A DNA stretch of 64,000 nucleotides from Chloroherpetonaceae bacterium (GTDB lineage: Bacteria; Bacteroidota; Chlorobiia; Chlorobiales; Chloroherpetonaceae), in NCBI GenBank assembly GCA_028277445.1, contig JANQGG010000064.1, positions 3,124 to 67,123 of the forward strand, written 5' to 3'. Shown one piece after another: positions 12,834 through 54,615 of this stretch. Numbering within the stretch: position 1 is the first letter of the stretch; each line of letters opens with the position of its first letter. The position numbers and the translations under genes were made by a program. The notes under the pieces are model-generated. The model worked only from the letters and a program-made list of their open reading frames with translations. It was not told the origin of the DNA and searched no databases.

Positions 12834-12985
12834 AGTTAAACGGTGTTTTTAGGTTTGTAAAGAATTGCGTTCAAATTAGAATGCAATGCATCGTATAAAA
12901 AAATTGATTTGGCCAGTGGCCATGAAAAGAACATGAGTTCATAATAATTTTTGAAAACAATAAGAAAACAGAATGGGAGAGTAGT

Positions 12986-13375: not shown

Positions 13376-13644
13376 TCTACATCGATAAGTTAAATCACTT
13401 CGTTGTATTTAATTCCTTTATCAAGTACAAGTATATAATTACAGGCAGAATAAGTGCTAAAATATAGTTATTAACTTTTCATTAAAAACGTATTTAATCA
13501 TATCCACCCAACCCGATTAAATTATATAAGCCATTTTTCGGAAACAACATATATCAAATATCGGCCAGAACGTCTTGAAGATGACCGTGCTTTAGAAAAA
13601 GATTTCCAGTCTTCTATTTGTATGATTTGCAAATTGCATGTGAT

Positions 13645-34470: not shown

Positions 34471-36186
34471 TCAATTTATAACCGCTTCATCAGATACAAA
34501 GACGTTTGTTGTATCTTCTTTATCAAGCGAACGAAGTGGGATATAGATAAAAAAATCCGTACCTACTCCGATTTTGCTTTTTACACTGATTTTTCCGTTA
34601 TGAGCTTCTTCAATAATTTTTCTGGAAATAGATAACCCTAGTCCGGTACCTTGACCAACTGGTTTTGTCGTGAAAAACGGATCAAAAATTTTATCAAGTA
34701 TCTCTTGTGGAATCCCTTTACCGTCATCGGATATTTGTACCACAATTTGATCTTTTTCACACCATGTTTTAATGGTTAAATGGCCTTCCCCTTTTTCTTC
34801 GGTAGCATGAGCCGCATTGCTAAAAATATTTAAGAACACCTGATTAAGCTGAGCCGGAGCGCATACCGTATCGGGAATTTGAGCGTATTGCTTATGTACC
34901 GTTACATGTCGTTTCAACAAATGGTGCGCAATAATCAAAGTAGAATCCAGGCATTCATTAAGATTGGCCATCTGCTCGGCGGTTTGATCCAGGCGTGAAA
35001 AATTCTTTAGATTAACAATTAATTCCTGAATGCGATCTAATCCTTGCAATGAACTTTCAAGCATCGTTGAATTTTCTTCAAATAAACCCACTTGGTCAAT
35101 TTGCTTGATTTTTTGTATGGCTTCTGGAATTGATTTTTCAAGATTATCGTAATTGCCTTTTAACAGATGATCTAAAATCATCTTAATTTTTTTATGAGCC
35201 TCGTTGAATTCTTTTTCATTCTCATCGATGATTTCAACATTATTTCTTACAAATCCAAGAGGAGTATTCATTTCATGGGCCAAACCGGCAACCATTTGAC
35301 CTAATGAAGCCATTTTTTCGGATTGGATCAACTGGCTTTGCGACTCACGGATAATTTCATCCTGCTTACGTAAAGATATCGCCAACCGAACCGACATAGC
35401 AACAAATACAATGATGCTTAAGGCTAAGGCGCCAATTTGAATTAAGAGCAAATTATCGACTCGCCCAGCGGCTAGCGTACCTAGTGAAACAATAAAGCTT
35501 CGATTGTTGGATTGTATGCTTTGGTCTTTTGTAATGGCAAAATCTATGGCGTTGGAAAGCAAGTTTTCGTTAGGTAAGCCATTTGTTTTCTTATGAACAA
35601 ATTCATTGACGAGGTCTTTGGCAAATCGCCATATCACGGAAATGTTCTTTATATGTTTTTTGGACGCTTCATCATTTAATTGATCAATGCTAACGGTTTG
35701 TCCATCAATCTGGATCTCGCCGCCATTATTTAAAACCACTACGGTTTGGTCAAAAAACTGTATGGCTTCTTTATATGTGTTGAATGATGTAATAACCTGA
35801 TCAAGTTTCCAGGCAACCATATTCAGTTTCGCTGAAATTACCGAATCCTGATTTGAGTATCTTTTGGCTAACGCTTTAATAGTTTCAGGGTTATTTAGAC
35901 TATTGATTTCGGAATAGATGTCAGGATGAGAAAAGCCAATCTCTTCCTTTAAAACTGAATATTCAACCAATGAGGTTTGCGTTGAAAGGAGATTTCTGTA
36001 TGAAGTCTGCCAAAATTCCTGTTGCTTGGTTGCCAAATATATCTGGTTGGTAACTTGCTGACTACTCGTTGTAAGATTAATGTTTACGACAAAAACGGCT
36101 GCAACTAAAATCAAAAATAAAATCCCGTAAATGATCAGTTCCGAATACTTAGCAATGAGTTTTTCTTTTGACTTAGGCTTCGGCAT
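34471..36186 (-). CDS. Membrane sensor histidine kinase
   Basis: Two TM segments flank a ~210-aa extracytoplasmic region. H-box GLAHEMNTPLG. NAAHA, DDGKGI, GTGLGLS. Confidence 0.9.
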   Translation of the reverse strand: MPKPKSKEKLIAKYSELIIYGILFLILVAAVFVVNINLTTSSQQVTNQIYLATKQQEFWQTSYRNLLSTQTSLVEYSVLKEEIGFSHPDIYSEINSLNNPETIKALAKRYSNQDSVISAKLNMVAWKLDQVITSFNTYKEAIQFFDQTVVVLNNGGEIQIDGQTVSIDQLNDEASKKHIKNISVIWRFAKDLVNEFVHKKTNGLPNENLLSNAIDFAITKDQSIQSNNRSFIVSLGTLAAGRVDNLLLIQIGALALSIIVFVAMSVRLAISLRKQDEIIRESQSQLIQSEKMASLGQMVAGLAHEMNTPLGFVRNNVEIIDENEKEFNEAHKKIKMILDHLLKGNYDNLEKSIPEAIQKIKQIDQVGLFEENSTMLESSLQGLDRIQELIVNLKNFSRLDQTAEQMANLNECLDSTLIIAHHLLKRHVTVHKQYAQIPDTVCAPAQLNQVFLNIFSNAAHATEEKGEGHLTIKTWCEKDQIVVQISDDGKGIPQEILDKIFDPFFTTKPVGQGTGLGLSISRKIIEEAHNGKISVKSKIGVGTDFFIYIPLRSLDKEDTTNVFVSDEAVIN

Positions 36187-37400: not shown

Positions 37401-39308
37401 ATGACATGTATTAAGAAATTACCTGAAAATGTTGCTAATAAAATCTCAGCCGGGGAGGTTGTCCAGCGCCCGGCTTCAGTTGTAAAAGAATTAATTGAAA
37501 ACTCGATTGATGCCGGGGCCGATGAAATTACGGTTGTCATAAAAGATGCAGGCAAAGCGCTGATTCAGGTTACAGATAATGGCATTGGAATGTCTGAAGA
37601 TGATGCCCTTATGAGTTTTCATCGGTTTGCGACCAGTAAAATTAAGGATGTCGATGATTTGGAACATTTAACCACGTTGGGTTTTCGTGGAGAAGCGTTG
37701 GCAAGCATTTCAAGTGTGGCTCGGGTTGAGCTTAAAACCCGGCAACAGGAAGAGAAGCTTGGCGCTCTGGTGAAACTATCAGGCGGAATGTTAGAAACTG
37801 TTGATAAAGTGCAAACCAAAGTCGGGAGCAGTTTCAGCGTTCGTAATCTTTTTTACAATGTACCGGCACGCAGAAAGTTTTTAAAAACGAACACTACAGA
37901 ATTCAAACATATTTTTGAAACCGTTCAAGCGCAAGTTCTTTTAAATACGGATATCCGATGGAAGTTGATCAGCAACGACAATGAAGTTTTTCGAATAGGA
38001 TCCGAAACCATTGAGCAGCGAATGAATCTTTTTTTCGGTCAGTCATTTTCAGAAAGCGTTTTTAAAGTTGATGAAGAAAACGATTTTATGAAAATTCGTG
38101 GATTTCTTGGAAAACCTGCAATGATGAAACGTACAAAGAACGATCAGCTCTTGTTTATCAACAACCGGATTACACAAAATCGCATGGTGTCGCATGCTGT
38201 AATGCAAGCTTATGGCGAGTTGCTTGGCGAAAGAGAATATCCCTTTTTTTTAATCTATTTGGATATAGACCCCAAGTTTATAGATGTAAATGTTCATCCG
38301 TCGAAAATGGAAGTTAAATTCGAAGACGAACGAAATGTCCATAACATGATTCTGACGATTATTAAGCGAGCGGTTTCATCGATGGACTTTTCACCGAGAA
38401 TTAACTTAACTGAACGTCCCGAATATCTTCAAAAAACCGAGCAGACGGATTCTGGCAAATCGTCGTTTCCCGGTTTGCAAAAGCGAATGAATTATAATGA
38501 CCGGGATCAGGAACTCTTAAACAGAGATAATCTTTACAGGGATTTTAAAGAAAGGATATCAGCAGTAAAGCCACCACACACACCTTCCGAAGGTTTAAGC
38601 TTTGCAAATGATTTCATAAACGAAAACCAGTCCGAGGTTGAATCGCAATCTTCCACACAAATGGATTTTTCCAAGCCGGAGACTGAGCAAATGGAGATAT
38701 TAATACATTCTAAACCTGATGATCCTGAACGCTGCCAGGATGAACAGGCCGTCTGGCAACTCCATAACACATATATTTTGACACAAATAAAATCCGGCTT
38801 GATGATTATAGACCAGCATGTTGCCCATGAACGCATTTTGTATGAACGAGCCATCGAGGTGATTGAATCCGATGTCCCGAATTCACAGCAGCTGTTGTTT
38901 CCGCATGTTTTTCATTTAAAAGCTTGGGAAGAAGAAGTTCTTCATGAGGTCAAACCGGACCTTGAACGGTTAGGGTTTGTACTAAAAATTAAGCCTAACC
39001 AAAAAGTGATCATCGAAGCGGTTCCGCCGGAAGTTAAAACCGGGTATGAAGAGAAAATTCTTCACGATATGCTATCGCAGTATATGATTTATCAAAAAGA
39101 GCTCAATCTTGAAATTCGAGATAATATTGCAAAGTCTTACGCGTGCCGAAGTTCCATTATGGCCGGTCAAAAACTTTCAAAACCTGAAATGATTTCATTG
39201 ATCGACCGGTTATTTGCGACAAAAATGCCCTATGTTTGCCCTCATGGTCGGCCAATTATAATAAAGCTTTCTATTGGAGAGTTTGATAAAATGTTTGGCA
39301 GAACATAA
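37401..39308 (+). CDS. mutL: DNA mismatch repair protein MutL
   Basis: IKKLPENVANKISAGEVVQRPASVVKELIENSIDAGA; C-terminal CPHGRP. Confidence 0.93.
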   Translation: MTCIKKLPENVANKISAGEVVQRPASVVKELIENSIDAGADEITVVIKDAGKALIQVTDNGIGMSEDDALMSFHRFATSKIKDVDDLEHLTTLGFRGEALASISSVARVELKTRQQEEKLGALVKLSGGMLETVDKVQTKVGSSFSVRNLFYNVPARRKFLKTNTTEFKHIFETVQAQVLLNTDIRWKLISNDNEVFRIGSETIEQRMNLFFGQSFSESVFKVDEENDFMKIRGFLGKPAMMKRTKNDQLLFINNRITQNRMVSHAVMQAYGELLGEREYPFFLIYLDIDPKFIDVNVHPSKMEVKFEDERNVHNMILTIIKRAVSSMDFSPRINLTERPEYLQKTEQTDSGKSSFPGLQKRMNYNDRDQELLNRDNLYRDFKERISAVKPPHTPSEGLSFANDFINENQSEVESQSSTQMDFSKPETEQMEILIHSKPDDPERCQDEQAVWQLHNTYILTQIKSGLMIIDQHVAHERILYERAIEVIESDVPNSQQLLFPHVFHLKAWEEEVLHEVKPDLERLGFVLKIKPNQKVIIEAVPPEVKTGYEEKILHDMLSQYMIYQKELNLEIRDNIAKSYACRSSIMAGQKLSKPEMISLIDRLFATKMPYVCPHGRPIIIKLSIGEFDKMFGRT

Positions 39309-39447: not shown

Positions 39448-39476
39448 CGATGGTATTTTTAACTATCATTTTCATT

Positions 39477-40934
39477 ATGAATAGTTTGTTAGTTATTGAT
39501 GATGAACCGGTAATTACCGATTACATTACAGAAGTACTTGAAGAAGAAGGCTATAATGTTGAAGCAGCATATTCAGGTAACGAAGGTTTGGAAAAATTCA
39601 GAAAAGTATCACCGGATGTGATCATTTTGGATTTTATGCTCCCGGATATGAATGGCATTGAAGTGCTTAAGCAATTAAAACAAATTGATGAAAGCATTCA
39701 GGTAATTATGCTTACAGCGTTCAACTCCATTCCAACGGCAATGGAGGCTGTAAAATTAGGCGCTGCGGATTACATTTTAAAACCATTTGAGTTAGAGCCG
39801 TTTAAAATAACGGTTGCAAAAACCATTGAAAAGGCCAACCTTACCAATGAGCTTCGATTTCTCCGCCAGGAAAGTGAAAAAAAACTGTCCGGGAAAGAGT
39901 TTATTATTTGCCCCTCCATTCAGATGTCTAAAATATATGATTTAACGTTTCAGGTTTCTCAAACCAATGATACCACGGTATTGATTTTAGGTGAAAGCGG
40001 CGTTGGCAAGGAACATATTGCAAAAATCATTCATCAAAGTTCGGAACGCTCATCAAAGCCTTTTGTGGAGATGAACTGCGCGGCTATTCCGGAAAATTTG
40101 CTGGAATCTGAATTGTTCGGTCATGAACCCGGCGCTTTCACAGATGCCCGATCAAAAAAACTAGGCTTATTTGAATATGCAGACGGTGGAACCATTTTCT
40201 TAGATGAAATTGGTGATATGCCCCTGGCGACTCAGGCTAAAATATTAAAGGTATTGGAAAGCAAAGAGTTTAGGCGTGTAGGTGGATTGAGAGATATTAA
40301 AAGCGATGTTCGCGTTATTGCAGCCACCAATAAAGATTTGCCGACTGAAATTGAAAAAGGAAAATTTCGCGAAGATCTTTACTATCGTTTGCAAGTTGTC
40401 CCGATAGAAATTCCGCCTTTAAGAGAACGCAAAGAAGATATCCTTCACCTGGCTAACTTTTTCCTCGGCCTGTCTTGTAAGGCGATGCGAAAACGTATGG
40501 AACTTTCCGGTGAAGCGGCCTCCACACTGCTTTCCTATCATTGGAAAGGCAATGTCAGGGAGCTGAAAAATGTCATCGAACGCGCCGTAATTGTAGCGCC
40601 AAATGGGCAAGAGATTAAATCGGAGCATTTGGCTTTTAAGCCGATGTCTGTTAGTGAGCTCAGTGAGAAAGCTGAGGATTTATTGGAAGAAAAACCGGTT
40701 AAAGACGAGTTTTCGGATAAGTATGGTTTTATAGAAAAATCAAAAAGGATCAGTAAAGGATTTAAATTGAGAGAACATCTCGAACAGTTGGAAAGTCAAT
40801 TTATAATGCAGGCGCTCAATGAAACAAACGGTAATCAGTTGAAGGCCTCAAAATTATTGGGCATTGAACGACATGTGTTGCGATATCAAATGAAAAAATA
40901 CGGCATTAGCGATTCGGGTATAATTCAGAAATAA
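39477..40934 (+). CDS. Sigma-54-dependent response regulator (NtrC family: REC, AAA+, Fis-type HTH)
   Basis: LLVIDDEP...ILDFMLPDMNG...KP; GESGVGKE Walker A; GAFTDA (GAFTGA variant); C-terminal NQLKASKLLGIERHVLRYQMKKYGI. Start set at the ATG at 39477 because the tRNA ends at 39447. Confidence 0.9.
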   Translation: MNSLLVIDDEPVITDYITEVLEEEGYNVEAAYSGNEGLEKFRKVSPDVIILDFMLPDMNGIEVLKQLKQIDESIQVIMLTAFNSIPTAMEAVKLGAADYILKPFELEPFKITVAKTIEKANLTNELRFLRQESEKKLSGKEFIICPSIQMSKIYDLTFQVSQTNDTTVLILGESGVGKEHIAKIIHQSSERSSKPFVEMNCAAIPENLLESELFGHEPGAFTDARSKKLGLFEYADGGTIFLDEIGDMPLATQAKILKVLESKEFRRVGGLRDIKSDVRVIAATNKDLPTEIEKGKFREDLYYRLQVVPIEIPPLRERKEDILHLANFFLGLSCKAMRKRMELSGEAASTLLSYHWKGNVRELKNVIERAVIVAPNGQEIKSEHLAFKPMSVSELSEKAEDLLEEKPVKDEFSDKYGFIEKSKRISKGFKLREHLEQLESQFIMQALNETNGNQLKASKLLGIERHVLRYQMKKYGISDSGIIQK

Positions 40935-42248: not shown

Positions 42249-42278
42249 AAAAAGCCGGTTTCTGCCGGCTTTTTTTTT
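42249..42278. terminator. Bidirectional rho-independent terminator between the vWA gene and dapF
   Basis: AAAAA-GCCGG-tttctg-CCGGC-TTTTTTTTT. Confidence 0.7.
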
Positions 42279-43077
42279 ACAAGTTTATTTCTCCCTTGAA
42301 TGTCTCAAACGCCGGACCGGCTAAAAACACGTTGCTAAAATCTTCATCAAAGGATACCTGAAGGCTATCGCCACTCTGAACGGTAACGTTTAGAACATTC
42401 GATTGGGTTTTGCCCAACTTATGGCTTACAATGGCAGCAGCTACAACGCCTGTTCCGCATGCCAGAGTTTCATCTTCCACGCCCCGCTCAAACGTGCGTA
42501 CCCGAATAGACTCTTTGGTGTGCATTTGAACAAAGTTAACATTAGTGCCTTGTTTAAAATGGCTATAAGCGTGGCGAATGGTTTTTCCAATCGCACACAC
42601 ATCGATCTCTTGAATGTTATCTTCAAATAAAACAGCATGAGGTGAGCCAGTGTTTATGAAAGAGCAATCGTAGCCTTCCACAGATAAATGTTCAATAAAA
42701 TCAAATGGGGGCTGCATTTTTAAAACAATCTTTTTCTCATCAACAACTTGAGCTTCATAAGTATCGTCATTAGCCTCAAACATAATTTTCTCATTGTTTC
42801 CAATGAGCTTTAAATCCCAAGCAAAACGTACGGTGCATCTTCCGCCATTACCGCACATACTTCCTAAACGTCCATCTGCATTATAATAGACCATTTTGAA
42901 TGCTGCTTGGGATGAACTCTCAAGCAGAATCAGCCCGTCTGCGCCAATTCCTGTCTGGCGACGGCACAACGCATGAATTTGCTGTTCGCTTAAATTGTAA
43001 GTTTTTGTGCGGTTGTCGATCATGATAAAATCATTCCCGGCACCCGAGTGTTTTCTAAACTCAATCACCATTAACAC
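42277..43077 (-). CDS. dapF: Diaminopimelate epimerase
   Basis: SGAGNDFI, MCGNGGRC, and a second catalytic Cys in LACGTG. Confidence 0.9.
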   Translation of the reverse strand: MLMVIEFRKHSGAGNDFIMIDNRTKTYNLSEQQIHALCRRQTGIGADGLILLESSSQAAFKMVYYNADGRLGSMCGNGGRCTVRFAWDLKLIGNNEKIMFEANDDTYEAQVVDEKKIVLKMQPPFDFIEHLSVEGYDCSFINTGSPHAVLFEDNIQEIDVCAIGKTIRHAYSHFKQGTNVNFVQMHTKESIRVRTFERGVEDETLACGTGVVAAAIVSHKLGKTQSNVLNVTVQSGDSLQVSFDEDFSNVFLAGPAFETFKGEINL

Positions 43078-43187: not shown

Positions 43188-45017
43188 ATGAAGCGCTTTC
43201 TACATTTAAATATGATTTTAATGGCTGTATGCTCACTTATTATGAGTTCGCTTAGCTACAGTCAAGAAAGTCTGAAATTGCGATTAGCCAACGAAAGTTT
43301 TAAAGCAGGCCATTACCAACAAGCGGCCACATACTACGGCGAAATTATTCAACATCAGACATACAATAGTGTGGTGGTTTCTAATTACATTCATTGCCTT
43401 TATAAGCTTGAAGCACATGATAAACTGGAATCATTTTTAACGCAAAAAACCGCAGACAACCCAAAAATACCTGAGTATTGGGTGGAACTCTCACGATTTT
43501 ATTTCAAAACTTCACAGCCTGAAAAAGCCGGTAAGATTGTTGATGAAACATGCGCGAACTACCCACGATTTCGGATTTATCAACTATTTATAAATCTTCT
43601 GGCTGAAGAATTTCGCCATAAAAAACGTGTGGATTTAATTTTTCATGCACGAAAAGAATTAAACAATGATTCTCTTTTTGCTAAAGAAGCCGCCGAAAGC
43701 CACTTGTTTTTGAACCATTATGAACAAGCAACCCTCGAATTTGTTATTGACCTCTCGTTACATCCCGCGCACTATCAACAGGTCGAGCAACACATCAAAA
43801 GCTTTGCTTCAAAAGATGATCCCAAAATACTTTCAGAGGTGATTGCCGTTCTAAAGCAAGCCAAATCAAAAGTTGCCGGAAATGCTAAAAAGAGTATGGT
43901 AAAATTGCTGGCGGGTTTATATGAAGAGAATGATATGGAACGCGTGGCTCTAGCCGAGTTCAAAGCGCTGGATCAGTTTTATGGCTCAACGGGTCGGTTA
44001 TTATTTCAATTCGCTGAACGCCAGCGTCAAAAAAACAATCTGTTCATAGCTTACGATGCTTATGAAATGGCTCTCGAACAGCACGGAAACAATTACTACA
44101 AACAAAAATCGTTATACTGGTTAGCTATGTTGGGGTTAAAGATGGTTCAAGATGGTAAATCGGATGACGTGCTTCGAGGCGATGCAATTAAAGTCGCTAA
44201 CAAGTATATAAATACATACCCGCTAAAAAACCATGGCAAGTTGTATTTGGAGCTCGCAAAAGTTCAAGCCTATTACGCAAGAGAGAAAGAATCGGCTTAT
44301 GTAATACTTAATCGGATAAAAAGTGGGCGTTTTAATCATCAAGTTAAACAATATGCCAGGTTCATTGAAGCCGATCTGTTGTTTTCCGATGCTAAATTTA
44401 ATGCCTCTAAAACGCTGGCGCTTGAGTTAATCAATCAACTTTCGCCACGAGACGAGTGGTTTAATCAAACACTTTGGTTGTTGGGCCGGATCAGTTTTTT
44501 TGACTATGATTTTCAGCAATCACTAAGCTACCTCAAACAAATATCACATCTCAGCAAATCAAGCAACGATGCCATTAACTTAAAATTGATCATTTTAGAA
44601 GGCTTGGCCGATACTCTGGAAAATCCATCGTTATTTGAGGCGCTTAAAAAAGCCGTTGAGTTTTATAAACCCTTCCCGGAAAGTGAAAATAACAGCAGAT
44701 TGGATGCTGTAACGGAATGGTTAAATGCTTATCCGCAATCATCCCTTCAGGATAATCTCTTACTGTTAAAAGCCGAAATACTTGAATCAAAACAACCGCA
44801 TGTTGCAATAGAGATTTACAAAGATCTGCAAAAACGATTTCCAACAGGCTTTTTTGTTGATCGGGCCATTTACAAGCAAGCGTGGCTCGCCGAAAGACAT
44901 TTAAAGGATAAGGCATTGGCATTAAGGATGTATCAACAACTTATCAAAGATCATCCACGAAGCTTTTATGCTAAAGAGGCACGAAAACGGATTTTAAAGT
45001 TGATGAATCCTTCGTGA
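43188..45017 (+). CDS. Secreted TPR-repeat protein
   Basis: Signal peptide then alpha-helical repeat composition; no enzymatic motifs seen. Confidence 0.6.
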   Translation: MKRFLHLNMILMAVCSLIMSSLSYSQESLKLRLANESFKAGHYQQAATYYGEIIQHQTYNSVVVSNYIHCLYKLEAHDKLESFLTQKTADNPKIPEYWVELSRFYFKTSQPEKAGKIVDETCANYPRFRIYQLFINLLAEEFRHKKRVDLIFHARKELNNDSLFAKEAAESHLFLNHYEQATLEFVIDLSLHPAHYQQVEQHIKSFASKDDPKILSEVIAVLKQAKSKVAGNAKKSMVKLLAGLYEENDMERVALAEFKALDQFYGSTGRLLFQFAERQRQKNNLFIAYDAYEMALEQHGNNYYKQKSLYWLAMLGLKMVQDGKSDDVLRGDAIKVANKYINTYPLKNHGKLYLELAKVQAYYAREKESAYVILNRIKSGRFNHQVKQYARFIEADLLFSDAKFNASKTLALELINQLSPRDEWFNQTLWLLGRISFFDYDFQQSLSYLKQISHLSKSSNDAINLKLIILEGLADTLENPSLFEALKKAVEFYKPFPESENNSRLDAVTEWLNAYPQSSLQDNLLLLKAEILESKQPHVAIEIYKDLQKRFPTGFFVDRAIYKQAWLAERHLKDKALALRMYQQLIKDHPRSFYAKEARKRILKLMNPS

Positions 45018-45026
45018 AGTTTTTTT

Positions 45027-46520
45027 ATGAAGTACGATTGCATTGTCATAGGTTCAGGGATTGGTGGTTTATCATCTGCGGCAATTTTGGCTCATCAGGG
45101 ATGGCGGGTGTTGGTGTTGGAAGCAAACTATTTGCCCGGAGGGTGCGCTTCATCCTATCCTGTAAAAAAGAACCATCAAACCTTCTGGCTGGAAACAGGA
45201 GCTACAACATTGGTTGGCAAAGATTTCAATCAACCCTTAGATCTTCTCCAAAAACAGTTAAATATTACATTGCCCGGCGTTGAAACCAGTCCTGCCATGC
45301 AAGTGCATATGAACGGATTAAATGTAACCCGATTTAAAGATCGGGATGCCTGGGTGGAAGAGTGTTACCGTAAATTTTTTAAGAACGCCAACATACCCAA
45401 ACGAAATGTTACTGATTTTTGGGAAGAGGTTTTTACGATAGCTGATTTTGTATGGGATGTGTCGGGAAAAAACATGGCTTTTCCTCCATTGAACCTGCGC
45501 GATGTTTTTAATCTCATCAGCAATAATAAAGTTTCGGACGTGCCTAAACTTCGGTTTTTATTCCAATCCGCGAAAAACCGTCTGGACGCTTATGGATTAA
45601 GCCATAATGCTGAATTTATACGATTTTGTAATGAGCAATTGCGAATCACAGCTCAGTCCGATGTTGCCAATACCTCGTTTCTTTATGCTGCGCCGTGTTT
45701 GTCTTACGCCAACATTACAAATTATTATGTTTATGGCGGGATGATTGAGCTTTCAAGGGCGCTGATTGCAGCGCTTGAAGCAAATCAAGGTAAAATTTTG
45801 TATCGAAAAAAAGTTCGATCCATTGACAAGGTGGGAGAAGTCTTTAATGTGGAAACGGATGAACCTGAAGCCTATAAGTCCAGAACGGTCATCAGTAACG
45901 CGACCATGTGGGATATGGCTGAAATCACAAACGACCGGGCACGCAGTTTTTTTAAAATGCGCTCGGAAAAATACGATTTTGCCTATGCCGCATTTACGAT
46001 GGGCCTCGTATTAAAACGTGTGATTAATCCACAACCACCCTATCATCATCAGATGATTTTAACCAGACCAATTGTTCATTGCCTCTCGCATTCATTTTTT
46101 GTCTCTTTTTCAAAACCGGACGATACCTATCGGCATCCGGAGGGATATCAAATCCTTTCAATTTCAACGCATGTAGATCCGGAATTTTGGTTTGGTTTGA
46201 GCAAAAAGTATGATGAGTGTAAAGAACAAACGGCAAATGAAATTTTAGGTCATCTTAAAAACATATTCCCTGATTTTAATGAAAACGATGTTGTGGTTAT
46301 TCATACCTCAACGCCACGATCATGGCAAAACTGGGTGCATCGCAAACATGGGCGTGTTGGCGGACTGCCCAATATTTTTTCAAAAAATCCCTTACGCTCT
46401 CCTCAAACCAGAACCCCGTTTGAAGGCCTTTATTTGGTTGGGGATACGGTTTATCCTGGACAAGGTATTGCAGGTGTAACCTTATCGGGTATGGCGGCAG
46501 CCTATCATCTTCTGAAATAA
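45027..46520 (+). CDS. Phytoene-desaturase (CrtI/CrtD/CrtH) family FAD-dependent oxidoreductase
   Basis: YDCIVIGSGIGGLSSAAILA...VLEANYLPGGCA at the N-terminus; C-terminal GLYLVGDTVYPGQGIAGVTLSG. Confidence 0.75.
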   Translation: MKYDCIVIGSGIGGLSSAAILAHQGWRVLVLEANYLPGGCASSYPVKKNHQTFWLETGATTLVGKDFNQPLDLLQKQLNITLPGVETSPAMQVHMNGLNVTRFKDRDAWVEECYRKFFKNANIPKRNVTDFWEEVFTIADFVWDVSGKNMAFPPLNLRDVFNLISNNKVSDVPKLRFLFQSAKNRLDAYGLSHNAEFIRFCNEQLRITAQSDVANTSFLYAAPCLSYANITNYYVYGGMIELSRALIAALEANQGKILYRKKVRSIDKVGEVFNVETDEPEAYKSRTVISNATMWDMAEITNDRARSFFKMRSEKYDFAYAAFTMGLVLKRVINPQPPYHHQMILTRPIVHCLSHSFFVSFSKPDDTYRHPEGYQILSISTHVDPEFWFGLSKKYDECKEQTANEILGHLKNIFPDFNENDVVVIHTSTPRSWQNWVHRKHGRVGGLPNIFSKNPLRSPQTRTPFEGLYLVGDTVYPGQGIAGVTLSGMAAAYHLLK

Positions 46521-46688
46521 ATTGTGTTTATCCTAGCATTTTATTACCAAAGAAAGCATGAGTGGCCGAAATGGTCGTTAAATCAAGATGACATTTTGAT
46601 ATATTAAAGTTATCTTATATTAAAAACCTCATAAATTAACCTATTTTAATACAGGCACATTTTTGTGCTAATAACCCTTTTTGTAACT

Positions 46689-46726
46689 TATGCTTACGCT
46701 GTTTAAGACGTATCAGAATAAGCATA
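46689..46726. repeat. 8-bp inverted repeat upstream of the B12-binding regulator gene
   Basis: TATGCTTA (46689-46696) ... TAAGCATA (46719-46726), ending 16 nt before the ATG. Confidence 0.3.
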
Positions 46727-46741
46727 GTATTTGACAAGGTT

Positions 46742-47788
46742 ATGAATCATTACTTTTCTACACGAGAGTTGTCGAAGCTATGTGGCGTGGGTGAAACCAC
46801 AGTGAAACGGTGGTCTAATATGGGTTTAATCAAACACCACAAAACTGTCGGACGTCACCGAAAATTCAAGCTGGAAGATGTTCTGGATTTTATTAGCAAG
46901 AATCATATCCAGATACCCAATGAACAAATAGAGCAGCTAAAGCTTGAAAAACAATCCTCGGATAATCTTGATTTAGGCGCTGAAATTATTCTGGTAAAAG
47001 GTGATACGGATGCATTGGCGCAAAGATTATACACCAGTTTATGTGCCAAAAATAAGCAAGAAGTTGAGGTTCTGTTAATCCGAGCATTTGAGCAGAAACT
47101 TTCATTTGCTACGATCTTTGATAAAATGATTGCTCCGGCAATGCATAAGGTTGGCAACTTATGGGAAAATCAGAAGATATGTTCGGCAGAAGAACATGTC
47201 ATCTCAAATATTATGGTTGAAGCCATAATGCGATTGAAAACCCGGTATGAATCCCTTCAGAGTGATATTAGCCTGGGTGTTGATGACGATTATGGAATGG
47301 ATGGAGAACCTACTTTGTATCGCCATCGAAAAAGACATGATCAAACGCATCGCATTAAAACACCGATTAATGATTTAGAGCAAGATAAAGCTTCAAAGCC
47401 AAAGGTGGTTGTATGCTCATGCCCTGAAATTGAGCATCACGAAATTGCATTACAAGGCGTTGCCTTAGTATGCGCCAGTCATGGATTTGAAGTCTTATAT
47501 GTTGGGCGGGCTGTGCCTTTTAAGGATTTATTGAAATTTATTGAAGTTTCTGAGCCAGGGCTTGTTTGCATGTTGTTTACATCTGCTAAAATTGATGAGA
47601 TGCTATATAAAAGGTATGAGCAGTTTCGAAAAAAAATGGCAAGAGCAAAAATCAAGCTAATTATCGGCGGTCAATTTTTAGGAGAAAAAAAGTCTTTTCC
47701 GATTAAATCTGATTTCAGGGCTTTCAATTGTGTGTCGCTAGAGCAATATTTGAAGCAAAATTTTCAAGTGAGTAGTTCAATCTTGTGA
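46742..47788 (+). CDS. CarH/LitR-like transcriptional regulator: MerR/excisionase-type HTH plus B12-binding_2 helical bundle plus cobalamin-binding Rossmann domain
   Basis: HTH STRELSKLCGVGETTVKRW. Exact W-x9-E-H (LWENQKICSAEEH). KVVVCSCPEIEHHEIALQG...LIIGGQF matches the E/DxHxxG cobalamin domain with A in place of G. Confidence 0.75.
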   Translation: MNHYFSTRELSKLCGVGETTVKRWSNMGLIKHHKTVGRHRKFKLEDVLDFISKNHIQIPNEQIEQLKLEKQSSDNLDLGAEIILVKGDTDALAQRLYTSLCAKNKQEVEVLLIRAFEQKLSFATIFDKMIAPAMHKVGNLWENQKICSAEEHVISNIMVEAIMRLKTRYESLQSDISLGVDDDYGMDGEPTLYRHRKRHDQTHRIKTPINDLEQDKASKPKVVVCSCPEIEHHEIALQGVALVCASHGFEVLYVGRAVPFKDLLKFIEVSEPGLVCMLFTSAKIDEMLYKRYEQFRKKMARAKIKLIIGGQFLGEKKSFPIKSDFRAFNCVSLEQYLKQNFQVSSSIL

Positions 47789-47891
47789 TTTAATTAGGTT
47801 TTTAAATCACAATGAGAAGAAACTTAAAATAAATGCGCATCCTTTGATGCGACGCTATATTTAATAGGTTTTCTGATTTATTTTGTTTTTT

Positions 47892-47919
47892 TTGCTTGCA
47901 AAAAGAAACTTTTTAATAT
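47892..47919 (+). promoter_or_regulatory. Candidate sigma-70-type promoter for pscA
   Basis: TTGCTT, 16 nt, TAATAT. AT-rich context, so false positives are likely. Confidence 0.2.
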
Positions 47920-47940
47920 TTTTCTGAAGGTCAACTTTTG

Positions 47941-47960
47941 TAAATTGATGCTTCAATTTA
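47941..47960. repeat. 20-bp palindrome in the pscA leader
   Basis: TAAATTGA-TGCT-TCAATTTA, ending 60 nt upstream of the pscA ATG. Confidence 0.35.
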
Positions 47961-48019
47961 AAGTTTTACATTTTTGTCGTATTAAAATTTGTTAATAAGG
48001 AGAATAAAAGGAGAAAACT

Positions 48020-50269
48020 ATGGCAGACCAAGAGAAACCTACCGGAGCTCAACCGGGTGGTGGAAGCGGTGCACCGAAAAGACCTCCAATGCAAGCTGCT
48101 AAATTGCAGGCTGCACAAAAAACAGGCACACCAAAAGCTGCTGCAAAACCTGCTGCTGCAAGGCCAGCAACTGCTAAAAAAGCTCCAGCTAAAGATGTTC
48201 CGCCTACAAAGGAAGCCGATGTATCGGTGATGAAACGCTTTTTATTGAAGCGTTCCGAAACACGTACCACCAAATGGTTCCAAGTTTTTGATGCCGATAA
48301 ACTTGATGACGAACAAGTAGTGGGCGCCCATCTTGCGCTTTTAGGCACGTTGGGTATTGTAATGGGTATCTATTACATCTCGGGTATTCAAGTTTTTCCA
48401 TGGGGACAAATTGGATTCCATGATAATTGGTTCTATTTGACCATTAAGCCGAGATTGGTTTCATTAGGTATCGATACCTACAGCACGGCGGCTGAAGATT
48501 TAATGAAAGCAGGTGAAAACTTGCTTTGGTGGGCAGGAATTCACTTTTTAAGCGGATCATTCCTCATTTTTGGGGGTTGGCGTCACTGGACAAAAAACCT
48601 GACTAATCCATTTACCGGAAGAACAGGTAATTTCAGAGACTTCCGCATGTTCAAATACTTCACAAAACGAAGCGCTAAAAACTACGCTGAAGCATTAGGC
48701 GCTCATACCATTTACCAGTCTTTCCTATTCCTGGCTTGGGGATTTGTGATGTGGTTTGCTTTGGATATTGTTCCTATGCCGGATTTTCAAACCATTAATT
48801 CAGAAGCCTTTATGTCTTTTGTATGGTTTGTAATCTTTTTTGCCGTTGGTTATTACTGGTGGGAAAATCCTCCCGGAGCTGCCAGCCATTTGAATGATGA
48901 TTTAAAAGCGATTTTCTCCGTTCATCTTACAGCAATGGGTTATGTAAATATTGCGCTTGGCATTTTTGCATTCATTGCGTTCAAACAAGAGCAGTTCTTC
49001 TATCAAGACCTTAATAATTTGGTTTATTACATCTACGGTGAGCCATTTAACCGGGTAAGTTTTGATTTTGTTATGGAAGGTGGTAAGATCATATCCGGAA
49101 CAAAAGAATTTGCCGAATATGCGCCTTATGCAATCCTTCCTAAGAACGGTGAATCCTTTGGTATGGCTCAAGTTGTCATTAACCTTGTTGCATTTAACCA
49201 CATTATATGCGGTGTTTTGTATGTGTTTGCCGGTGTTTTCCATGGCGGTCAGTATTTGCTGAAAATTCAAATGTCAGGCTTATACTCTCAGATCAAATCA
49301 TTCTGGGTTGCCTATGGAAGAGATCAGGAACGCCAGGTTCGCATTTTAGGTACAATTATGGTGCTTTGTTTTACAACCATGATCTCAGTTTATGCGGTTG
49401 TGTGTTGGAACTCAATATGTGAGCTGAACATATTGGGCACAAACATTACCATGTCATTTTATTGGCTGAAACCAATTCCACCGTTTAGTTTCTTGTTTGA
49501 AGATCCTAGCGTTAATGATTGGGCAGCCGTTCATGAATTGGTTGCGGGTTCATTGTTCTCATTAATTGCGTTAGTTCGTATCGCATTCTTTGCTCATACT
49601 TCTCCGCTTTGGGAAGATTTGGGCTTGAAGAAAAATTCGTTCTCATTCCCATGTTTAGGACCGGTTTATGGCGGTACATGCGGCGTGTCTATCCAAGATC
49701 AGTTATGGTTTGCCATGCTTTGGGGCGTTAAAGGGCTCTCTGTAGTAGAATGGTATATTGATGGCGGATGGGTAGCTTCAATGAACTACGGTATGGCCGT
49801 AGCCGATTGTAACTCATGGGATGCCATTGCAGGTTTGAGCAATCACTATACTGGCGGTATCTTTTATTACATGTGGGTTGAAACCCAATCAATTTGGGCA
49901 AGCTCTCACTTAACCGTTGTACTTTTAATTGGTCACTTGGTATGGTTTGTAAGTTTTGCCGTTTGGTTTAAAGATCGTGGTTCTCGTTTGGAAGGTGCCG
50001 ATATCCAAACCCGTACTATTCGTTGGTTGGGCAAAAAATTCCTAAATCGCGATGTCCAATTCCGATTCCCGGTATTGAATCTTTCGGATTCTAAACTTGC
50101 TGGAACAGTCATGTACTTTAGCGGCACGTTTATGTTGGTTTGGCTGTATATTGTCAATGGTTTTTATATGACCAATGAACCTCGACCTGCACCAGTGGGT
50201 CAAGCAGCTCAGACGACAAGTGATTTTCTTACGAGTGTCGTGGATTATTTATTGAAATTTATAGCGTAA
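48020..50269 (+). CDS. pscA: Type-I photosynthetic reaction-centre core protein PscA (P840-type)
   Basis: Double AGGAG RBS. 749 aa. Long stretches match green-sulfur PscA as I recall it (HDNWFYLTIKPR, FGGWRHWT, FNHIICGVLYVFAGV). FX loop FPCLGPVYGGTCG at about 49646-49684. Pro/Ala/Lys-rich N-terminus. Confidence 0.95.
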   Translation: MADQEKPTGAQPGGGSGAPKRPPMQAAKLQAAQKTGTPKAAAKPAAARPATAKKAPAKDVPPTKEADVSVMKRFLLKRSETRTTKWFQVFDADKLDDEQVVGAHLALLGTLGIVMGIYYISGIQVFPWGQIGFHDNWFYLTIKPRLVSLGIDTYSTAAEDLMKAGENLLWWAGIHFLSGSFLIFGGWRHWTKNLTNPFTGRTGNFRDFRMFKYFTKRSAKNYAEALGAHTIYQSFLFLAWGFVMWFALDIVPMPDFQTINSEAFMSFVWFVIFFAVGYYWWENPPGAASHLNDDLKAIFSVHLTAMGYVNIALGIFAFIAFKQEQFFYQDLNNLVYYIYGEPFNRVSFDFVMEGGKIISGTKEFAEYAPYAILPKNGESFGMAQVVINLVAFNHIICGVLYVFAGVFHGGQYLLKIQMSGLYSQIKSFWVAYGRDQERQVRILGTIMVLCFTTMISVYAVVCWNSICELNILGTNITMSFYWLKPIPPFSFLFEDPSVNDWAAVHELVAGSLFSLIALVRIAFFAHTSPLWEDLGLKKNSFSFPCLGPVYGGTCGVSIQDQLWFAMLWGVKGLSVVEWYIDGGWVASMNYGMAVADCNSWDAIAGLSNHYTGGIFYYMWVETQSIWASSHLTVVLLIGHLVWFVSFAVWFKDRGSRLEGADIQTRTIRWLGKKFLNRDVQFRFPVLNLSDSKLAGTVMYFSGTFMLVWLYIVNGFYMTNEPRPAPVGQAAQTTSDFLTSVVDYLLKFIA

Positions 50270-50526: not shown

Positions 50527-50865
50527 ATGGCAGCAACAGCAACGAAGAAAAAAGTTAAGAAGCGCCAAAAAAATAGATATGATATTATAGAAAATCTATG
50601 TGTTGGTTGCGGTTTGTGCTTGGATCAATGTCCGCCAAAAGTTAATTCCATAGGTTGGAAAATTTATGGGGATTGGCAAGAAGGTGGATTCAGATGTTAT
50701 ATAGATCAGAATGTGTGTATTTCTTGTCAATTGTGTTTTGATACCGATGTTTGTCCTTCTGGCGCATTGATTGAAATTAGACCTGAAGGGCAAATTCTGG
50801 ATTTCAGACACACACCAAGCAAACGAATCGAAATGTACGATCAACCGTTTTTTGAAAGAGCCTAG
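50527..50865 (+). CDS. pscB: Reaction-centre FA/FB iron-sulfur protein PscB, short form (112 aa)
   Basis: AGGAGG RBS. CVGCGLCLDQCP and CISCQLCFDTDVCP cluster motifs. IIENLCVGCGLCLD..CPPKVN and GGFRCYIDQ resemble green-sulfur PscB. Confidence 0.9.
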   Translation: MAATATKKKVKKRQKNRYDIIENLCVGCGLCLDQCPPKVNSIGWKIYGDWQEGGFRCYIDQNVCISCQLCFDTDVCPSGALIEIRPEGQILDFRHTPSKRIEMYDQPFFERA

Positions 50866-50947: not shown

Positions 50948-51739
50948 ATGAGTAAACCCACAGAATTTATTTCCCAAAAGGATGGTGTTTTAACCCAAGA
51001 CAATCCAATGTTAGCTAAAGGTAAAACCTTAGTTATTATTCCTACCTTTAATGAGTCTGAAAACATTAAAGAAATCATCGTATTGGTTTTCAAGTTAAAT
51101 ATTCCGGGTTTGGACATCCTTGTTGTAGATGATAATTCCCCGGATGCAACAGCTGATGTTGTTGAATCTTTAATGAGCGATTTCTCAAATCTTTTTTTAA
51201 AAAAACGACCCGGAAAGTTGGGTTTGGGCACAGCCTACGTTGTGGGATTTAAGTATGCAATTGAAAATCAGTATGATTTTATTGTTGAAATGGATGCCGA
51301 TTTATCGCATGATCCCCAGATGCTTCCCCAATTTTTGAAAGAAATTCAAACGTCGGATTTGGTGATTGGTTCGCGCTATATAAATGAAGTTTCCAATGTG
51401 GTAAATTGGCCGCTTCGTCGATTAATGCTATCGAAAGGCGCAAGTGTATATACCCAGATAATTACTCGGATGCCCATCAAAGACCCGACATCAGGGTTTA
51501 AATGCTTTAGAAGAAAGGTGTTGGAAGCAATTAATTTAGATAATATTCATTCCGGGGGCTATTCCTTTCAGATCGAAATGAATTTTAAGGCATGGAATAA
51601 AGGATTCAAATTAAAAGAAATGCCTATTATTTTTGTCGATAGGACAGTAGGCAAATCCAAGATGTCGAAAAAAATCATTTGGGAAGCAATATGGATGGTC
51701 TGGGGACTAAAATTCAAACAACTCTTTAAGCAGCTATAA
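50948..51739 (+). CDS. GT2 polyprenol-phosphate mannosyl/glycosyltransferase (DPM1/Ppm1-like)
   Basis: IIPTFNESENI, VVDDNSPD, EMDADLSH. Confidence 0.8.
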   Translation: MSKPTEFISQKDGVLTQDNPMLAKGKTLVIIPTFNESENIKEIIVLVFKLNIPGLDILVVDDNSPDATADVVESLMSDFSNLFLKKRPGKLGLGTAYVVGFKYAIENQYDFIVEMDADLSHDPQMLPQFLKEIQTSDLVIGSRYINEVSNVVNWPLRRLMLSKGASVYTQIITRMPIKDPTSGFKCFRRKVLEAINLDNIHSGGYSFQIEMNFKAWNKGFKLKEMPIIFVDRTVGKSKMSKKIIWEAIWMVWGLKFKQLFKQL

Positions 51740-52524: not shown

Positions 52525-54615
52525 TTAGGCGCTTTCTACTTTAGCTTCTTTTGCTTCTTCGACAATTTTTTCTCGTAATTCAAAAGGCACTTCTTCATAA
52601 TGGCTGAATTTGTATGAATACCTTGCTCTTCCCTGAGTTAAACGGTTAAAGGCATTGTACAAATTGTGAAGTTCGGAAAGCGGCAATAAGCAATTCAAAA
52701 CCTGGAAGCGTTTTTCAGTATCCATGCCTTGAATTTTTCCTCGCCTGCTGGAGATTTCTCCAACAATGGCGCCAGTGTGTTGATCGGGTGTTAAGATTCT
52801 CAGCGTATAAATTGGTTCAAGCAATGTCGGGTTGGCTTTTTCAAAAGCAGACTTAAATCCCATACTGGCAGCAATTTTGAAAGCATATTCGGAACTATCC
52901 ACAGGATGATGTGAACCGTCGTAGACAACCGCTTTAACGTCAACAACAGGGTAACCGGCTAATACACCTTTTTCGATGGTTTCTTCTACCCCTTTTTGAA
53001 CCGCAGGAATGTATCGGGTTGGCACAACACCGCCAACAACTTCACTATCAAAATCGATACCTTCTCCGCGATCTCTTGGCTCAATGCGCATCCATACATC
53101 GCCATACTGACCGCGACCGCCGGATTGTCGTTTAAACTTACCCTGTGCCTGTGCTGTTTTATGAATGGTTTCTCGATATGGAATTTTAATTGGCGCTACT
53201 TCCACTTCAACGCTAAACTTTTCTTTTAGACGGCGTATAACGGTTTCTATGTGAGTTTCACCTAAGCCGCTAAGTACGATCTGATTAAATTCACTTTCGT
53301 GTTTTATTGCAAAACTGGGATCTTCTTCGTGAAGGTGATAAAGCCCGGATGATATTTTTTCTTCATCTCCCTGGGCAAGAGGTTTGATTGCAATTTCAAT
53401 GACAGGCTCAGGAAATTCTATCGGATTAATGATATGTTTAACCCCTTTATCAGCTAATGTATCGTTGGTATGGCTGTCTTTTAATTTTACAACAACGCCG
53501 ATATCGCCACCCAAAAGTTTTTCTACAGGGATTTTTTCATGACCAAGCATGGTGTAGACTTGCCCCAGTTTTTCAAGCTGCCCGGTTTGGGCATCCACCA
53601 ACTCATGACCCGATTCCACATGACCCGAATACACCCTGAAATAAGAAATTTCACCAATATGCGGCTCTGAAACTGTTTTGAAAATAAATGCGACGGTTGC
53701 TGATTCAGGATCAGGTTCCACCAAGACATCCTTTTTAGAGGAAGCATCTAATGCATGCTCAGGGCCACGTTCTATCGGATTCGGAAAAATATTCACAAAC
53801 ACATTTAAAAGCCGCTCAACGCCAATTAGATGAAGTGGCGACGTGCAGAAAACCGGAAATAGCGTTCGAGAAACCAAAGCATGTTTAATTCCAGAGCGCA
53901 GATCATCTTCAGATAGCGTACCGTCTTCAAAGTACTTATTCATAAGCTCTTCATCTGTTTCAGCAACGCTTTCAATAAGTTCATGATGATACGCTTTGGC
54001 ACGCTCAAGATACTTTTCAGGTATTTCGGAAACCTTCATGGATCCAGCCTTATCCGGTGAAAACTCAAATTGTTTCATCAGAAGAACATCAATAAAGATG
54101 TGGTGTCCCAAACCTTCTTCAGTTGGAAATTGGATTGGAATGACTCCCAATCCAAAGTGTTCTTTAAGTTCGTTTAAGGTCTTTTCATAGCTTGCGCGCT
54201 CAGCATCAAGTTTTGTAATGACAAATCCCGTGGGTTTATACATGGATTGCGTGTATTCCCAAATCAGGTCTGTTCCAACTTCCACACCCAATGCAGCATT
54301 GATGGTCATTAATACGGTATCGGATACACGAATTGCAGACTTCACATCGCCATAAAAATCATTGAATCCCGGAGTATCAATAATGTTGATTTTATGATCT
54401 CGCCATGTTCCATGTATTAATGATGAATTAACGCTATGTTTTTTTGCAATTTCATCAGGAGCATGATCGGAAATCGTTGTGCCTTCTTCAATGCTGCCCA
54501 TTCGATTGGTTGCGCCCATGGTGTAAGCAAGCGCTTCGGCAAGCATAGTTTTACCCGATCCGGCATGTCCTGTAATTGCAATGTTGCGAATATGAGATGG
54601 ATGAAAAGTTGTCAT
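52525..54615 (-). CDS. Elongation factor G paralog (EF-G2-like translational GTPase)
   Basis: IRNIAITGHAGSGKTM G1 motif, DTPGFNDF G3 motif, full five-domain length. Stand-alone, not in a str operon. Confidence 0.85.
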   Translation of the reverse strand: MTTFHPSHIRNIAITGHAGSGKTMLAEALAYTMGATNRMGSIEEGTTISDHAPDEIAKKHSVNSSLIHGTWRDHKINIIDTPGFNDFYGDVKSAIRVSDTVLMTINAALGVEVGTDLIWEYTQSMYKPTGFVITKLDAERASYEKTLNELKEHFGLGVIPIQFPTEEGLGHHIFIDVLLMKQFEFSPDKAGSMKVSEIPEKYLERAKAYHHELIESVAETDEELMNKYFEDGTLSEDDLRSGIKHALVSRTLFPVFCTSPLHLIGVERLLNVFVNIFPNPIERGPEHALDASSKKDVLVEPDPESATVAFIFKTVSEPHIGEISYFRVYSGHVESGHELVDAQTGQLEKLGQVYTMLGHEKIPVEKLLGGDIGVVVKLKDSHTNDTLADKGVKHIINPIEFPEPVIEIAIKPLAQGDEEKISSGLYHLHEEDPSFAIKHESEFNQIVLSGLGETHIETVIRRLKEKFSVEVEVAPIKIPYRETIHKTAQAQGKFKRQSGGRGQYGDVWMRIEPRDRGEGIDFDSEVVGGVVPTRYIPAVQKGVEETIEKGVLAGYPVVDVKAVVYDGSHHPVDSSEYAFKIAASMGFKSAFEKANPTLLEPIYTLRILTPDQHTGAIVGEISSRRGKIQGMDTEKRFQVLNCLLPLSELHNLYNAFNRLTQGRARYSYKFSHYEEVPFELREKIVEEAKEAKVESA

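Follow-up and report, generated by a model that had tools for sequence, protein, structure and literature searches.

In CtMerR, a transcription factor of Chloracidobacterium thermophilum, the B12 domain binds adenosylcobalamin (AdoCbl), photolyses under 530 nm light and passes from tetramer to monomer (Yu et al., FEBS J 2024, PMC11796333). Its signature consists of the motifs GxxW, EH, GxxH and GxxxP, with His204 as the lower ligand, and the glycine of GxxH, G201, contacts the corrin by its main-chain carbonyl only (PMC11796333). The Streptomyces protein BldC binds 9-bp direct repeats head-to-tail, with Arg30 reading a YpG step, Gly44 at the interface between subunits and His46 entering the minor groove where an AT-rich tetramer lies, and its optimised site is two copies of GTCCGAATT (PMC5859096). 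We analysed a stretch of 64,000 nucleotides (the window) from a Chloroherpetonaceae bacterium (GenBank assembly GCA_028277445.1, contig JANQGG010000064.1, positions 3,124 to 67,123), in which an open reading frame (ORF) at 46742-47788 on the + strand encodes a 348-aa regulator directly upstream of pscA, the gene for the type-I reaction-centre core subunit. To our knowledge, how green sulfur bacteria and related lineages control transcription is little understood, and we know of no photoreceptor tied to the reaction centre of this group. An earlier note on this DNA had stated that no light- or B12-sensing DNA-binding regulator was known to its author to have been linked to a PscA reaction centre, and our literature searches likewise found no paper linking a regulator of this kind with pscA or with Chlorobi. 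We lean towards the view that the protein is an AdoCbl-dependent photoreceptor transcription factor of the CtMerR type, adjoining pscA and adding a light-dependent component to its transcription.

Domain architecture, signature residues, fold, the BldC-type DNA-binding domain, repeat conservation and synteny were computed directly. The gene encodes a BldC-type winged helix-turn-helix (wHTH) joined to an AdoCbl-type cobalamin-binding domain, as in the CtMerR family, and the order of parts described in the earlier note (a helix-turn-helix, a helical bundle with a Wx9EH signature and a B12 Rossmann domain) was recovered by Pfam, by an AlphaFold model and by Foldseek. The wHTH (residues 4-54, 46751-46903) matches Pfam HTH_17 with an E value of 5.3e-11 (43.1 bits; gathering score 27). 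The four-helix bundle (residues 89-180, 47006-47281), which carries G138-x-x-W141 and E151-H152, matches B12-binding_2 over residues 93-165 (E 2e-11, above the gathering score), and the Rossmann-type domain (residues 221-340, 47402-47761) matches B12-binding over residues 223-312 (E 2.8e-7). Between the last two lies a disordered charged linker specific to the clade (residues 179-216, 47276-47389, predicted local distance difference test (pLDDT) about 30); all four parts are read on the + strand. The AlphaFold2 model, built on 22 homologues with a mean pLDDT of 80.8, comprises a wHTH (1-55), a connecting helix, the four-helix bundle (89-180), the disordered segment (179-216) and the Rossmann domain (221-340). 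In a Foldseek search of the PDB, it was closest to the CtMerR entries 8jbs and 8jbt (8jbs: E 4.5e-13, TM-score 0.83 on the target), followed by full-length TtCarH and then by photocobilins; entries 5c8d, 5c8e and 5c8f were found at E 3e-11 to 1e-9, and B12 domains of the 8c31 type at TM-scores of 0.7. The sequence search gave the same order, with CtMerR (8jbs) best at E 9e-24 and TtCarH/LitR at about 1e-4. Hence, the predicted structure is a CarH-like cobalamin-binding fold. A 99%-identical protein, P0001, has a database start 16 codons further upstream (364 aa; 46694-46741 in the window), and the ATG at 46742 is likely the true start because all homologues align from it.

The earlier note had called the protein CarH/LitR-like, which holds for the architecture and for the resemblance to AdoCbl photoreceptor repressors. 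It does not hold for orthology, since the regulator scores 41.5 bits against the cut-off of 400 of the NCBIfam CarH equivalog (NF052513, TransRegCarH) and carries a BldC-type DNA-binding domain; its nearest characterised relative is CtMerR. The protein has the CarH architecture and is no CarH/LitR orthologue. It also lies under the Pfam gathering scores of MerR_1 (21.5 against 21.6) and MerR (22.8 against 28.2), and reaches 28.5 bits against a cut-off of 77 for NCBIfam HTH_BldC. In kind, therefore, the regulator is already known, belonging to the CtMerR subgroup of the CarH-like AdoCbl photoreceptor regulators.

The CtMerR light-response signature, as defined with SignatureFinder, has eight positions, and a HMMER alignment found seven of them kept in the regulator. 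G138 and W141 correspond to G153 and W156 of CtMerR, E151 and H152 to E166 and H167, H233 to H204, and G255 and P259 to G226 and P230; the sole difference is Ile230 in place of G201. The codons of W141 (47162-47164) and H152 (47195-47197) give an exact W-x9-E-H, the segment E231-H232-H233-E234-I235-A236 occupies 47432-47449 with His233 (47438-47440) as the predicted lower axial ligand, and G255-x-x-x-P259 lies at 47504-47518. On checking, the positions that the earlier note had given for the ORF, for W141, H152 and the E-H-H-E-I-A segment, and for the spacer before pscA were all correct. Across 22 family members (47-73% identity), the seven residues vary little or not at all, and they are invariant in a separate 10-sequence set that includes distant homologues at 25-28% identity. 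Two features that had been thought atypical turned out to be ordinary for the group. The Rossmann motif reads ExHxxA, with alanine for the glycine of E/DxHxxG, and the experimentally validated CtMerR has the same alanine (D-L-H-E-I-A). The charged insertion, put at about 55 residues, is the disordered linker at 179-216, which is present in every Chloroherpetonaceae member with variable length and sequence; it is absent from the homologues of Bacteroidota, Ignavibacteria and Acidobacteriota, and the non-Chloroherpetonaceae homologues are 287-297 aa long. The residue after W141 is glutamate, where TtCarH has His132 and CtMerR an arginine, and because of this glutamate no bis-His light state is expected, as in CtMerR.

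We compared the DNA-binding domain with known structures using a profile of regulator residues 1-80 from 16 homologues, searched against the whole PDB at E <= 0.01. The profile matched only CtMerR (3.9e-23) and BldC (6amk/6ama, about 3e-9); CarH was not matched. R23, G37 and H39 of the regulator are the counterparts of BldC Arg30, Gly44 and His46, and all three, R23 within VKRW and G37 and H39 within G-x-H-R-K-F, are invariant in the regulator family. By sequence, the DNA-binding domain is thus of the BldC type and not of the CarH type.

The earlier note had proposed conservation of the adjacency in related genomes as its own test. In 17/17 distinct Chloroherpetonaceae loci, the regulator gene immediately precedes pscA and is read in the same direction (the window, L001-L011, L017, L018/19, L020/21, L022 and L023), with regulator identities of 49-72%. 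One of these, L017, is the cultured Chloroherpeton thalassium ATCC 35110 (CP001100), where the regulator is again followed by pscA. Around the pair the order varies, with at least seven gene families upstream of it and at least four after pscA. In five loci of the Thermochlorobacter-like clade (L003, L004, L006, L008 and L011), pscB is apart from pscA; since the regulator is never detached, its junction with pscA is better conserved than that between pscA and pscB. In 6/17 loci, drawn from both clades, the gene immediately before the regulator is CrtD-like. The order tetratricopeptide repeat (TPR) gene, CrtD-like gene, regulator, pscA, pscB was found in the window, L001, L018 and L010, as well as in the partial contigs L022 and L023, and is probably ancestral because it occurs in both clades. 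In the Chlorobiaceae examined (Prosthecochloris L026/27, Chlorobium L028/29), no regulator lies upstream of pscA; the order there is MutL ... dapF(-), then pscA-pscB-glycosyltransferase 2 (GT2)-elongation factor G (EF-G)(-), which is the frame of the window minus the TPR-CrtD-like-regulator block. The fixed association of regulator and pscA is specific to Chloroherpetonaceae and is new, as are the clade-specific linker and the prediction of a BldC-type operator for the family.

To locate candidate binding sites, the spacers upstream of the regulator were aligned separately for the Chloroherpeton-like and the Thermochlorobacter-like clades. Both alignments contained the same two conserved blocks, a tandem repeat and TTTTGTAACTTA, regardless of the upstream gene. 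In the window, the first is the candidate operator, formed by two tandem 9-bp direct repeats, GGCCGAAAT and GGTCGTTAA, at 46564-46581 (+). A tandem repeat of this kind was present in 16/16 Chloroherpetonaceae loci scanned, always on the + strand and between -172 and -232 relative to the regulator ATG, with the consensus GG[CT]CGWWWT twice at constant distance and orientation; in L010 it reads GGTCGATTT-GGTCGATTT. The degenerate pattern CGWWWWNNNCGWWWW is not enriched in the whole window (3 matches against 4.7 expected), and a position weight matrix (PWM) scan found no repeat upstream of the TPR-CrtD-like operon of the window. The second-best PWM match in the window (13558, - strand) was dropped because the spacer it falls in, close to an aminotransferase gene and a lipoprotein/TonB operon, is unrelated, and matches that recurred downstream of pscA in L003, L006 and L011 were dropped because they lie inside a coding region.

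The repeat type extends to distant homologues, which stand at the head of carotenoid operons. In two Bacteroidota loci (L013 and L014) the homologue is followed by crtI, crtB, a lycopene cyclase and further genes, and in an Ignavibacteria locus (L025) by genes for an acyltransferase, a glycosyltransferase, a carotenoid synthase, cyclases, CrtI, CrtB and a CrtI-like protein. In the C. thermophilum B locus L024 the homologue is divergent from a polyprenyl synthase operon. Since the distant homologues head carotenoid operons, carotenoid photoregulation is the ancestral role of the family. Directly upstream of the homologue, L014 has the repeat GCACGTTTT-GCACGTTTT and L013 has GCACGATTT-GCACGTTTT; these are the sole CGWWWWNNNCGWWWW matches in the two loci and lie about 15-45 nt before the start. 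The L025 repeat, CGATATAAA-CGTTTTGCA-CGTTTTAAA-CGTTCC, is a run of three to four 9-bp units (three full units and a partial fourth) lying 3-26 nt upstream of the homologue start. These matches at the distant homologues support the motif independently; the chance of a single CGWWWWNNNCGWWWW match within 60 nt of a 16-kb locus is about 0.004 per locus. A 9-bp repeat of the CGWWWW type is thus common to the upstream regions of Chloroherpetonaceae and distant homologues, and we take it as the family operator because its unit G(G/C)(T/A)CGWWTT, its 9-bp period and its layout of a CG step plus an AT tetramer match the BldC site. Judged from the DNA, the tandem repeat at 46564-46581 is likely the operator of the regulator.

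Further elements lie between this repeat and the gene. A sigma-70-like match, ATGACA-17-TATCTT (46588-46616, +), begins 6 nt past the end of the repeat; it is a consensus match not conserved in detail and may be the promoter of the regulator; this spacing fits an occlusion of the candidate promoter. The second conserved block, TTTTGTAACTTA (46679-46690, +), precedes the regulator start by about 50-65 nt in all Chloroherpetonaceae and reads TTTTCGTAAGTTA in the Thermochlorobacter clade. It may belong to a promoter or a leader, or may serve as a second binding site. A similar block, TTTTGTAAGTTTG, was seen upstream of the C. thermophilum homologue (L024, 9924-9939). In the Ca. Thermochlorobacter aerophilum OS bin, L012 carries at 8030-8445 a second, L003-like regulator 5' end, preceded by the same upstream elements (the repeat and the TTTTCGTAAGTTA block); it was rejected as a paralogue, since the bin seems to contain a second population.

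We also looked for sites in the spacer between the regulator stop and pscA, which measures 231 nt up to the pscA start at 48020, both genes being on the same strand. The only operator-like repeat of the window is the one upstream of the regulator gene and not within 47789-48019, where a lone unit-like GACGCTATA at 47851-47859 was discarded as an operator repeat, since close relatives do not have it in common. No canonical intrinsic terminator was found in the spacer; the hairpins at 47783-47812 and 47836-47851 have no U-tract on the + strand. A conserved promoter-like block, TTTG-N22-TATTTTTC, lies before pscA at 47891-47924 (+), and its C. thalassium counterpart is TTTG-N22-TACGTTTG, which we take to resemble the Bacteroidetes-type -33/-7 promoter consensus. 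The pscA leader with its ribosome-binding block (47988-48019, +) is conserved in Chlorobiaceae too. In six loci of the Thermochlorobacter clade (L003, L004, L006, L007, L008 and L011), two to five further phased units follow the regulator stop in inverted orientation, e.g., TATGGTCGATAT-GCACGAATT, and these arrays lie 10-15 nt from a conserved block GCAAAAAATGAAC...GTTCTTTG before pscA.

Other repeats were noted in the same spacers. In L003 (11103-11136), and also in the spacers of L002, L005, L008, L009 and L010, all of the Thermochlorobacter clade, the GTTCTTTG block is separated from the pscA leader by four to six phased copies of (A/T)GCAGTA (Tandem Repeats Finder period 8); they are absent from the clade of the window. 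An imperfect palindrome, AAAATGAAC...GTTCTTTG, is found once or twice upstream of pscA in the Thermochlorobacter clade (L003, 11060-11095), the equivalent place being occupied by GCAAAAAGAAAC in the clade of the window (47891-47924) and by GCAAAAAAATTTAT in Chlorobiaceae. A different regulator of pscA may bind at this palindrome.

From these elements, we infer cofactor binding, a light response, DNA binding to the repeats, a sign of regulation and an effect on pscA, which can be combined as follows. In the dark, AdoCbl, with His233 as its lower ligand, would be enclosed by the helical bundle (W141, E151 and H152) on one side and the Rossmann domain on the other, and would hold the protein as a tetramer, whose clustered DNA-binding domains could occupy the tandem 9-bp repeats at 46564-46581 head-to-tail, just upstream of the regulator's own promoter. 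Green or blue light would break the Co-C bond, dissociate the tetramer and release the DNA. The dark form would most likely be a repressor, by analogy with the distant homologues, for which dark repression is suggested by repeats that overlap both promoter and leader of a regulator-crt operon. A former carotenoid regulator, now fixed upstream of pscA(-pscB), would in this way add a light-dependent component to pscA transcription. In the window, the effect could reach pscA(-pscB) by light-dependent read-through from the autoregulated promoter, which is the simplest coupling route in this clade because no intrinsic terminator separates the two genes; in part of the Thermochlorobacter clade, the second array abutting the pscA promoter block could serve as a direct site. 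A bolder proposal is that the regulator once served carotenoid control, was recruited from there and now adjusts pscA(-pscB) transcription to light in a direct manner, by BldC-like binding to 9-bp arrays flanking its own gene, possibly with looping between the upstream array and the array before pscA; this we hold only tentatively, as somewhat short of an even chance.

Several observations weigh against a light-dependent control of pscA by this regulator. On the side of the protein, the B12-binding match reaches 30.8 bits against a gathering score of 32.1, i.e., 1.3 bits under, and the glycine of GxxH, isoleucine here, is serine, isoleucine or phenylalanine across the clade. Two family members, P0038 and P0041, have no precomputed match to Pfam B12-binding (PF02310), and in P0041 a glutamine replaces the axial histidine, so that cofactor binding may be decaying in some lineages. 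On the side of the DNA, the repeat of the window is 161-178 nt from the regulator ATG, with only a candidate promoter. A cross-clade PWM of the repeat gave the top match in 3/5 loci one way and about 4/10 the other way, and on this test alone the motif is suggestive. Neither the PWM nor the strict pattern found an operator-like repeat in the regulator-pscA spacer of the window and its close relatives, the best score in the nearest relative being about 0 or below. The pscA leader and ribosome-binding block and the AT-rich promoter-like block align between Chloroherpetonaceae and Chlorobiaceae, the latter having no regulator, which suggests that pscA has its own promoter; the C. thermophilum homologue (L024), for its part, is not near pscA. 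Because of this promoter-like block and the lack of a spacer repeat, direct regulation of pscA is suggested by gene order; control by read-through or through an unseen site is plausible. Reaction-centre transcripts of anoxygenic phototrophs in microbial mats, including Thermochlorobacter, follow the diel cycle, which counts in favour of a light-dependent control; in hot-spring mats, they are higher at night (PMC11788075). The night maximum argues against a simple dark repressor of pscA, which predicts the opposite. If the regulator governs pscA in mats, then dark activation, repression by the light state or a dominant oxygen-linked control is needed.

A competing explanation is that the regulator is an ordinary light-induced regulator of carotenoid synthesis and photoprotection, which autoregulates and controls crt genes elsewhere, its place beside pscA being inherited and of no regulatory meaning. 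The crtI-crtB-cyclase operons headed by homologues in Bacteroidota and Ignavibacteria agree with this explanation, as do the polyprenyl synthase operon divergent to the C. thermophilum homologue and the CrtD-like gene upstream in both clades, and hence ancestral in arrangement. So do the sole operator-like repeat of the window, upstream of the regulator itself, and the independent promoter-like block of pscA, common to Chlorobiaceae. However, the regulator-pscA pair was kept through every rearrangement seen, while the CrtD-like gene was lost nearby in most loci and pscB moved in five; repeat arrays abut the pscA promoter block in six loci; and no repeat was found upstream of the TPR-CrtD-like operon of the window. 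We consider a purely carotenoid role less likely than a photoreceptor acting on pscA, of which it is the most serious competitor.

A sensor of cobalamin supply and not of light, which would couple the photosynthetic apparatus to the B12 needed for bacteriochlorophyll with a logic like that of AerR/PpaA, is improbable. Green sulfur bacteria use the B12-dependent radical S-adenosylmethionine enzymes BchE, BchQ and BchR in bacteriochlorophyll synthesis, the B12-binding domain is intact, and the residue after W141 is not the histidine that forms the bis-His light state in TtCarH. CtMerR, however, also lacks that histidine and yet responds to light, the adenosyl-contacting Wx9EH that marks light-responsive domains is invariant in the family, and AdoCbl in such a pocket is intrinsically photolabile. 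That the cobalamin domain is degenerate and holds no cofactor, leaving a constitutive, BldC-like architectural regulator, is very improbable, for although the Pfam B12-binding match is just under its threshold, the GxxH glycine is lost, a long disordered insertion separates the two B12 subdomains and P0041 has lost the axial histidine, seven of the eight signature residues, including the axial histidine, are kept where sequences have diverged by about 50%, and distant homologues keep them too, the confident model has photoreceptor cobalamin-binding domains as its best matches, and the lost glycine contacts the corrin by its main-chain carbonyl only (PMC11796333).

In the rest of the locus, pscA (48020-50269, +) encodes a protein with 68-95% identity to proteins annotated as P840 reaction-centre large subunit, and is followed by a short pscB (50527-50865, +), whose 112-aa product consists of the core with two 4Fe-4S motifs only, compared to 245-317 aa in Chlorobiaceae (L026 and L028). 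Upstream, a gene for a secreted TPR protein (43188-45017, +) opens the three-gene block absent from Chlorobiaceae, and forms a tight pair, with a gap of 9 nt, with the CrtD/CrtH-like gene of the CrtI family (45027-46520, +). The latter, placed directly upstream of the regulator in the earlier note as well, is CrtD/isomerase-like by NCBIfam, below the cut-off. The frame is completed by MutL (37401-39308), dapF (42277-43077), GT2 (50948-51739) and EF-G (52525-54615). The photosystem locus is preceded, at a distance of a few kb, by a histidine kinase and a sigma-54-dependent response regulator (34471-36186 and 39450-40934); in L019, the response regulator has the same relative position. Elsewhere, a gene-poor spacer of 811 nt (12834-13644) precedes an operon for a lipoprotein and a TonB-dependent receptor (11802-12833 and 9245-11755, -); no Rfam family, including the cobalamin riboswitch, was found in this spacer at threshold. 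A cobalamin riboswitch or another known RNA in the window was likewise rejected, as Rfam gave a tRNA-Arg only. The GC content of the window is about 40%.

In summary, the regulator is a concrete candidate, and the first of its kind, for a sensor that may link light to a photosystem of the green sulfur type. The locus is a testable candidate, with a proven AdoCbl photoreceptor as the closest solved relative, a predicted operator and a target gene that is adjacent in every locus seen, and it is experimentally accessible since Chloroherpeton thalassium ATCC 35110, a type strain in culture, carries the regulator. The candidate repeat is also the first operator prediction for the whole family of HTH_17-B12 regulators, including CtMerR. 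If direct light control were true, the regulator would be the first known light sensor acting on a homodimeric type-I reaction centre and would belong to a photoreceptor class undescribed in Chlorobi; if the link to pscA were false, the regulator would be a further, ordinary CarH-like regulator of carotenoids.

Compared to the known systems, the regulator is nearest to CtMerR (8JBS/8JBT), with which it shares the layout of an HTH_17 wHTH, a helical bundle and a Rossmann B12 domain, as well as GxxW, EH, the axial histidine, GxxxP and the alanine for the glycine of ExHxxG. Neither protein has a histidine after the tryptophan that would allow a bis-His light state, and both host organisms have a homodimeric type-I reaction centre. 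The two differ in that identity is only 22-25%, the glycine of GxxH is isoleucine in the regulator, and the regulator has a clade-specific disordered linker of about 40-55 residues; the genes around CtMerR are a polyprenyl synthase operon and a CRISPR Cmr cluster and not pscA. With the class I CarH/LitR proteins of Thermus thermophilus, Myxococcus xanthus and Bacillus megaterium, it has in common the fold of the cobalamin domain, Wx9EH, the axial histidine and the ancestral link to carotenoid genes, and, by analogy, their dark tetramer on tandem direct repeats, disassembled by light, would be expected here too. Unlike these proteins, which have a MerR_1 DNA-binding domain and repeat units of 11 bp, the regulator has a BldC/HTH_17-type domain and candidate units of 9 bp, has no equivalent of His132 and is fixed beside a reaction-centre gene. 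The CarH/LitR operators lie at light-induced carotenoid promoters, and the candidate repeats at the regulator gene and, in distant homologues, at the regulator-crt operons. The AerR/PpaA proteins of purple bacteria are B12-binding modulators of photosystem genes, as is proposed for the regulator, an analogy drawn in the earlier note; they have no DNA-binding domain and act on CrtJ/PpsR, whereas the regulator carries its own, so that no partner of the PpsR type is implied. BldC (6AMK/6AMA) has a similar wHTH sequence, in which Arg30, Gly44 and His46 are conserved, and a site of 9-bp direct repeats with a CG step and then an AT-rich tetramer, to which GGTCGATTT, GCACGAATT and GGCCGAAAT are comparable. 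While BldC is a stand-alone domain of 68 residues without a sensor, the regulator, at 348 aa, shows this type of domain coupled to a ligand and light sensor, and its fused cobalamin photosensor would supply the oligomerisation.

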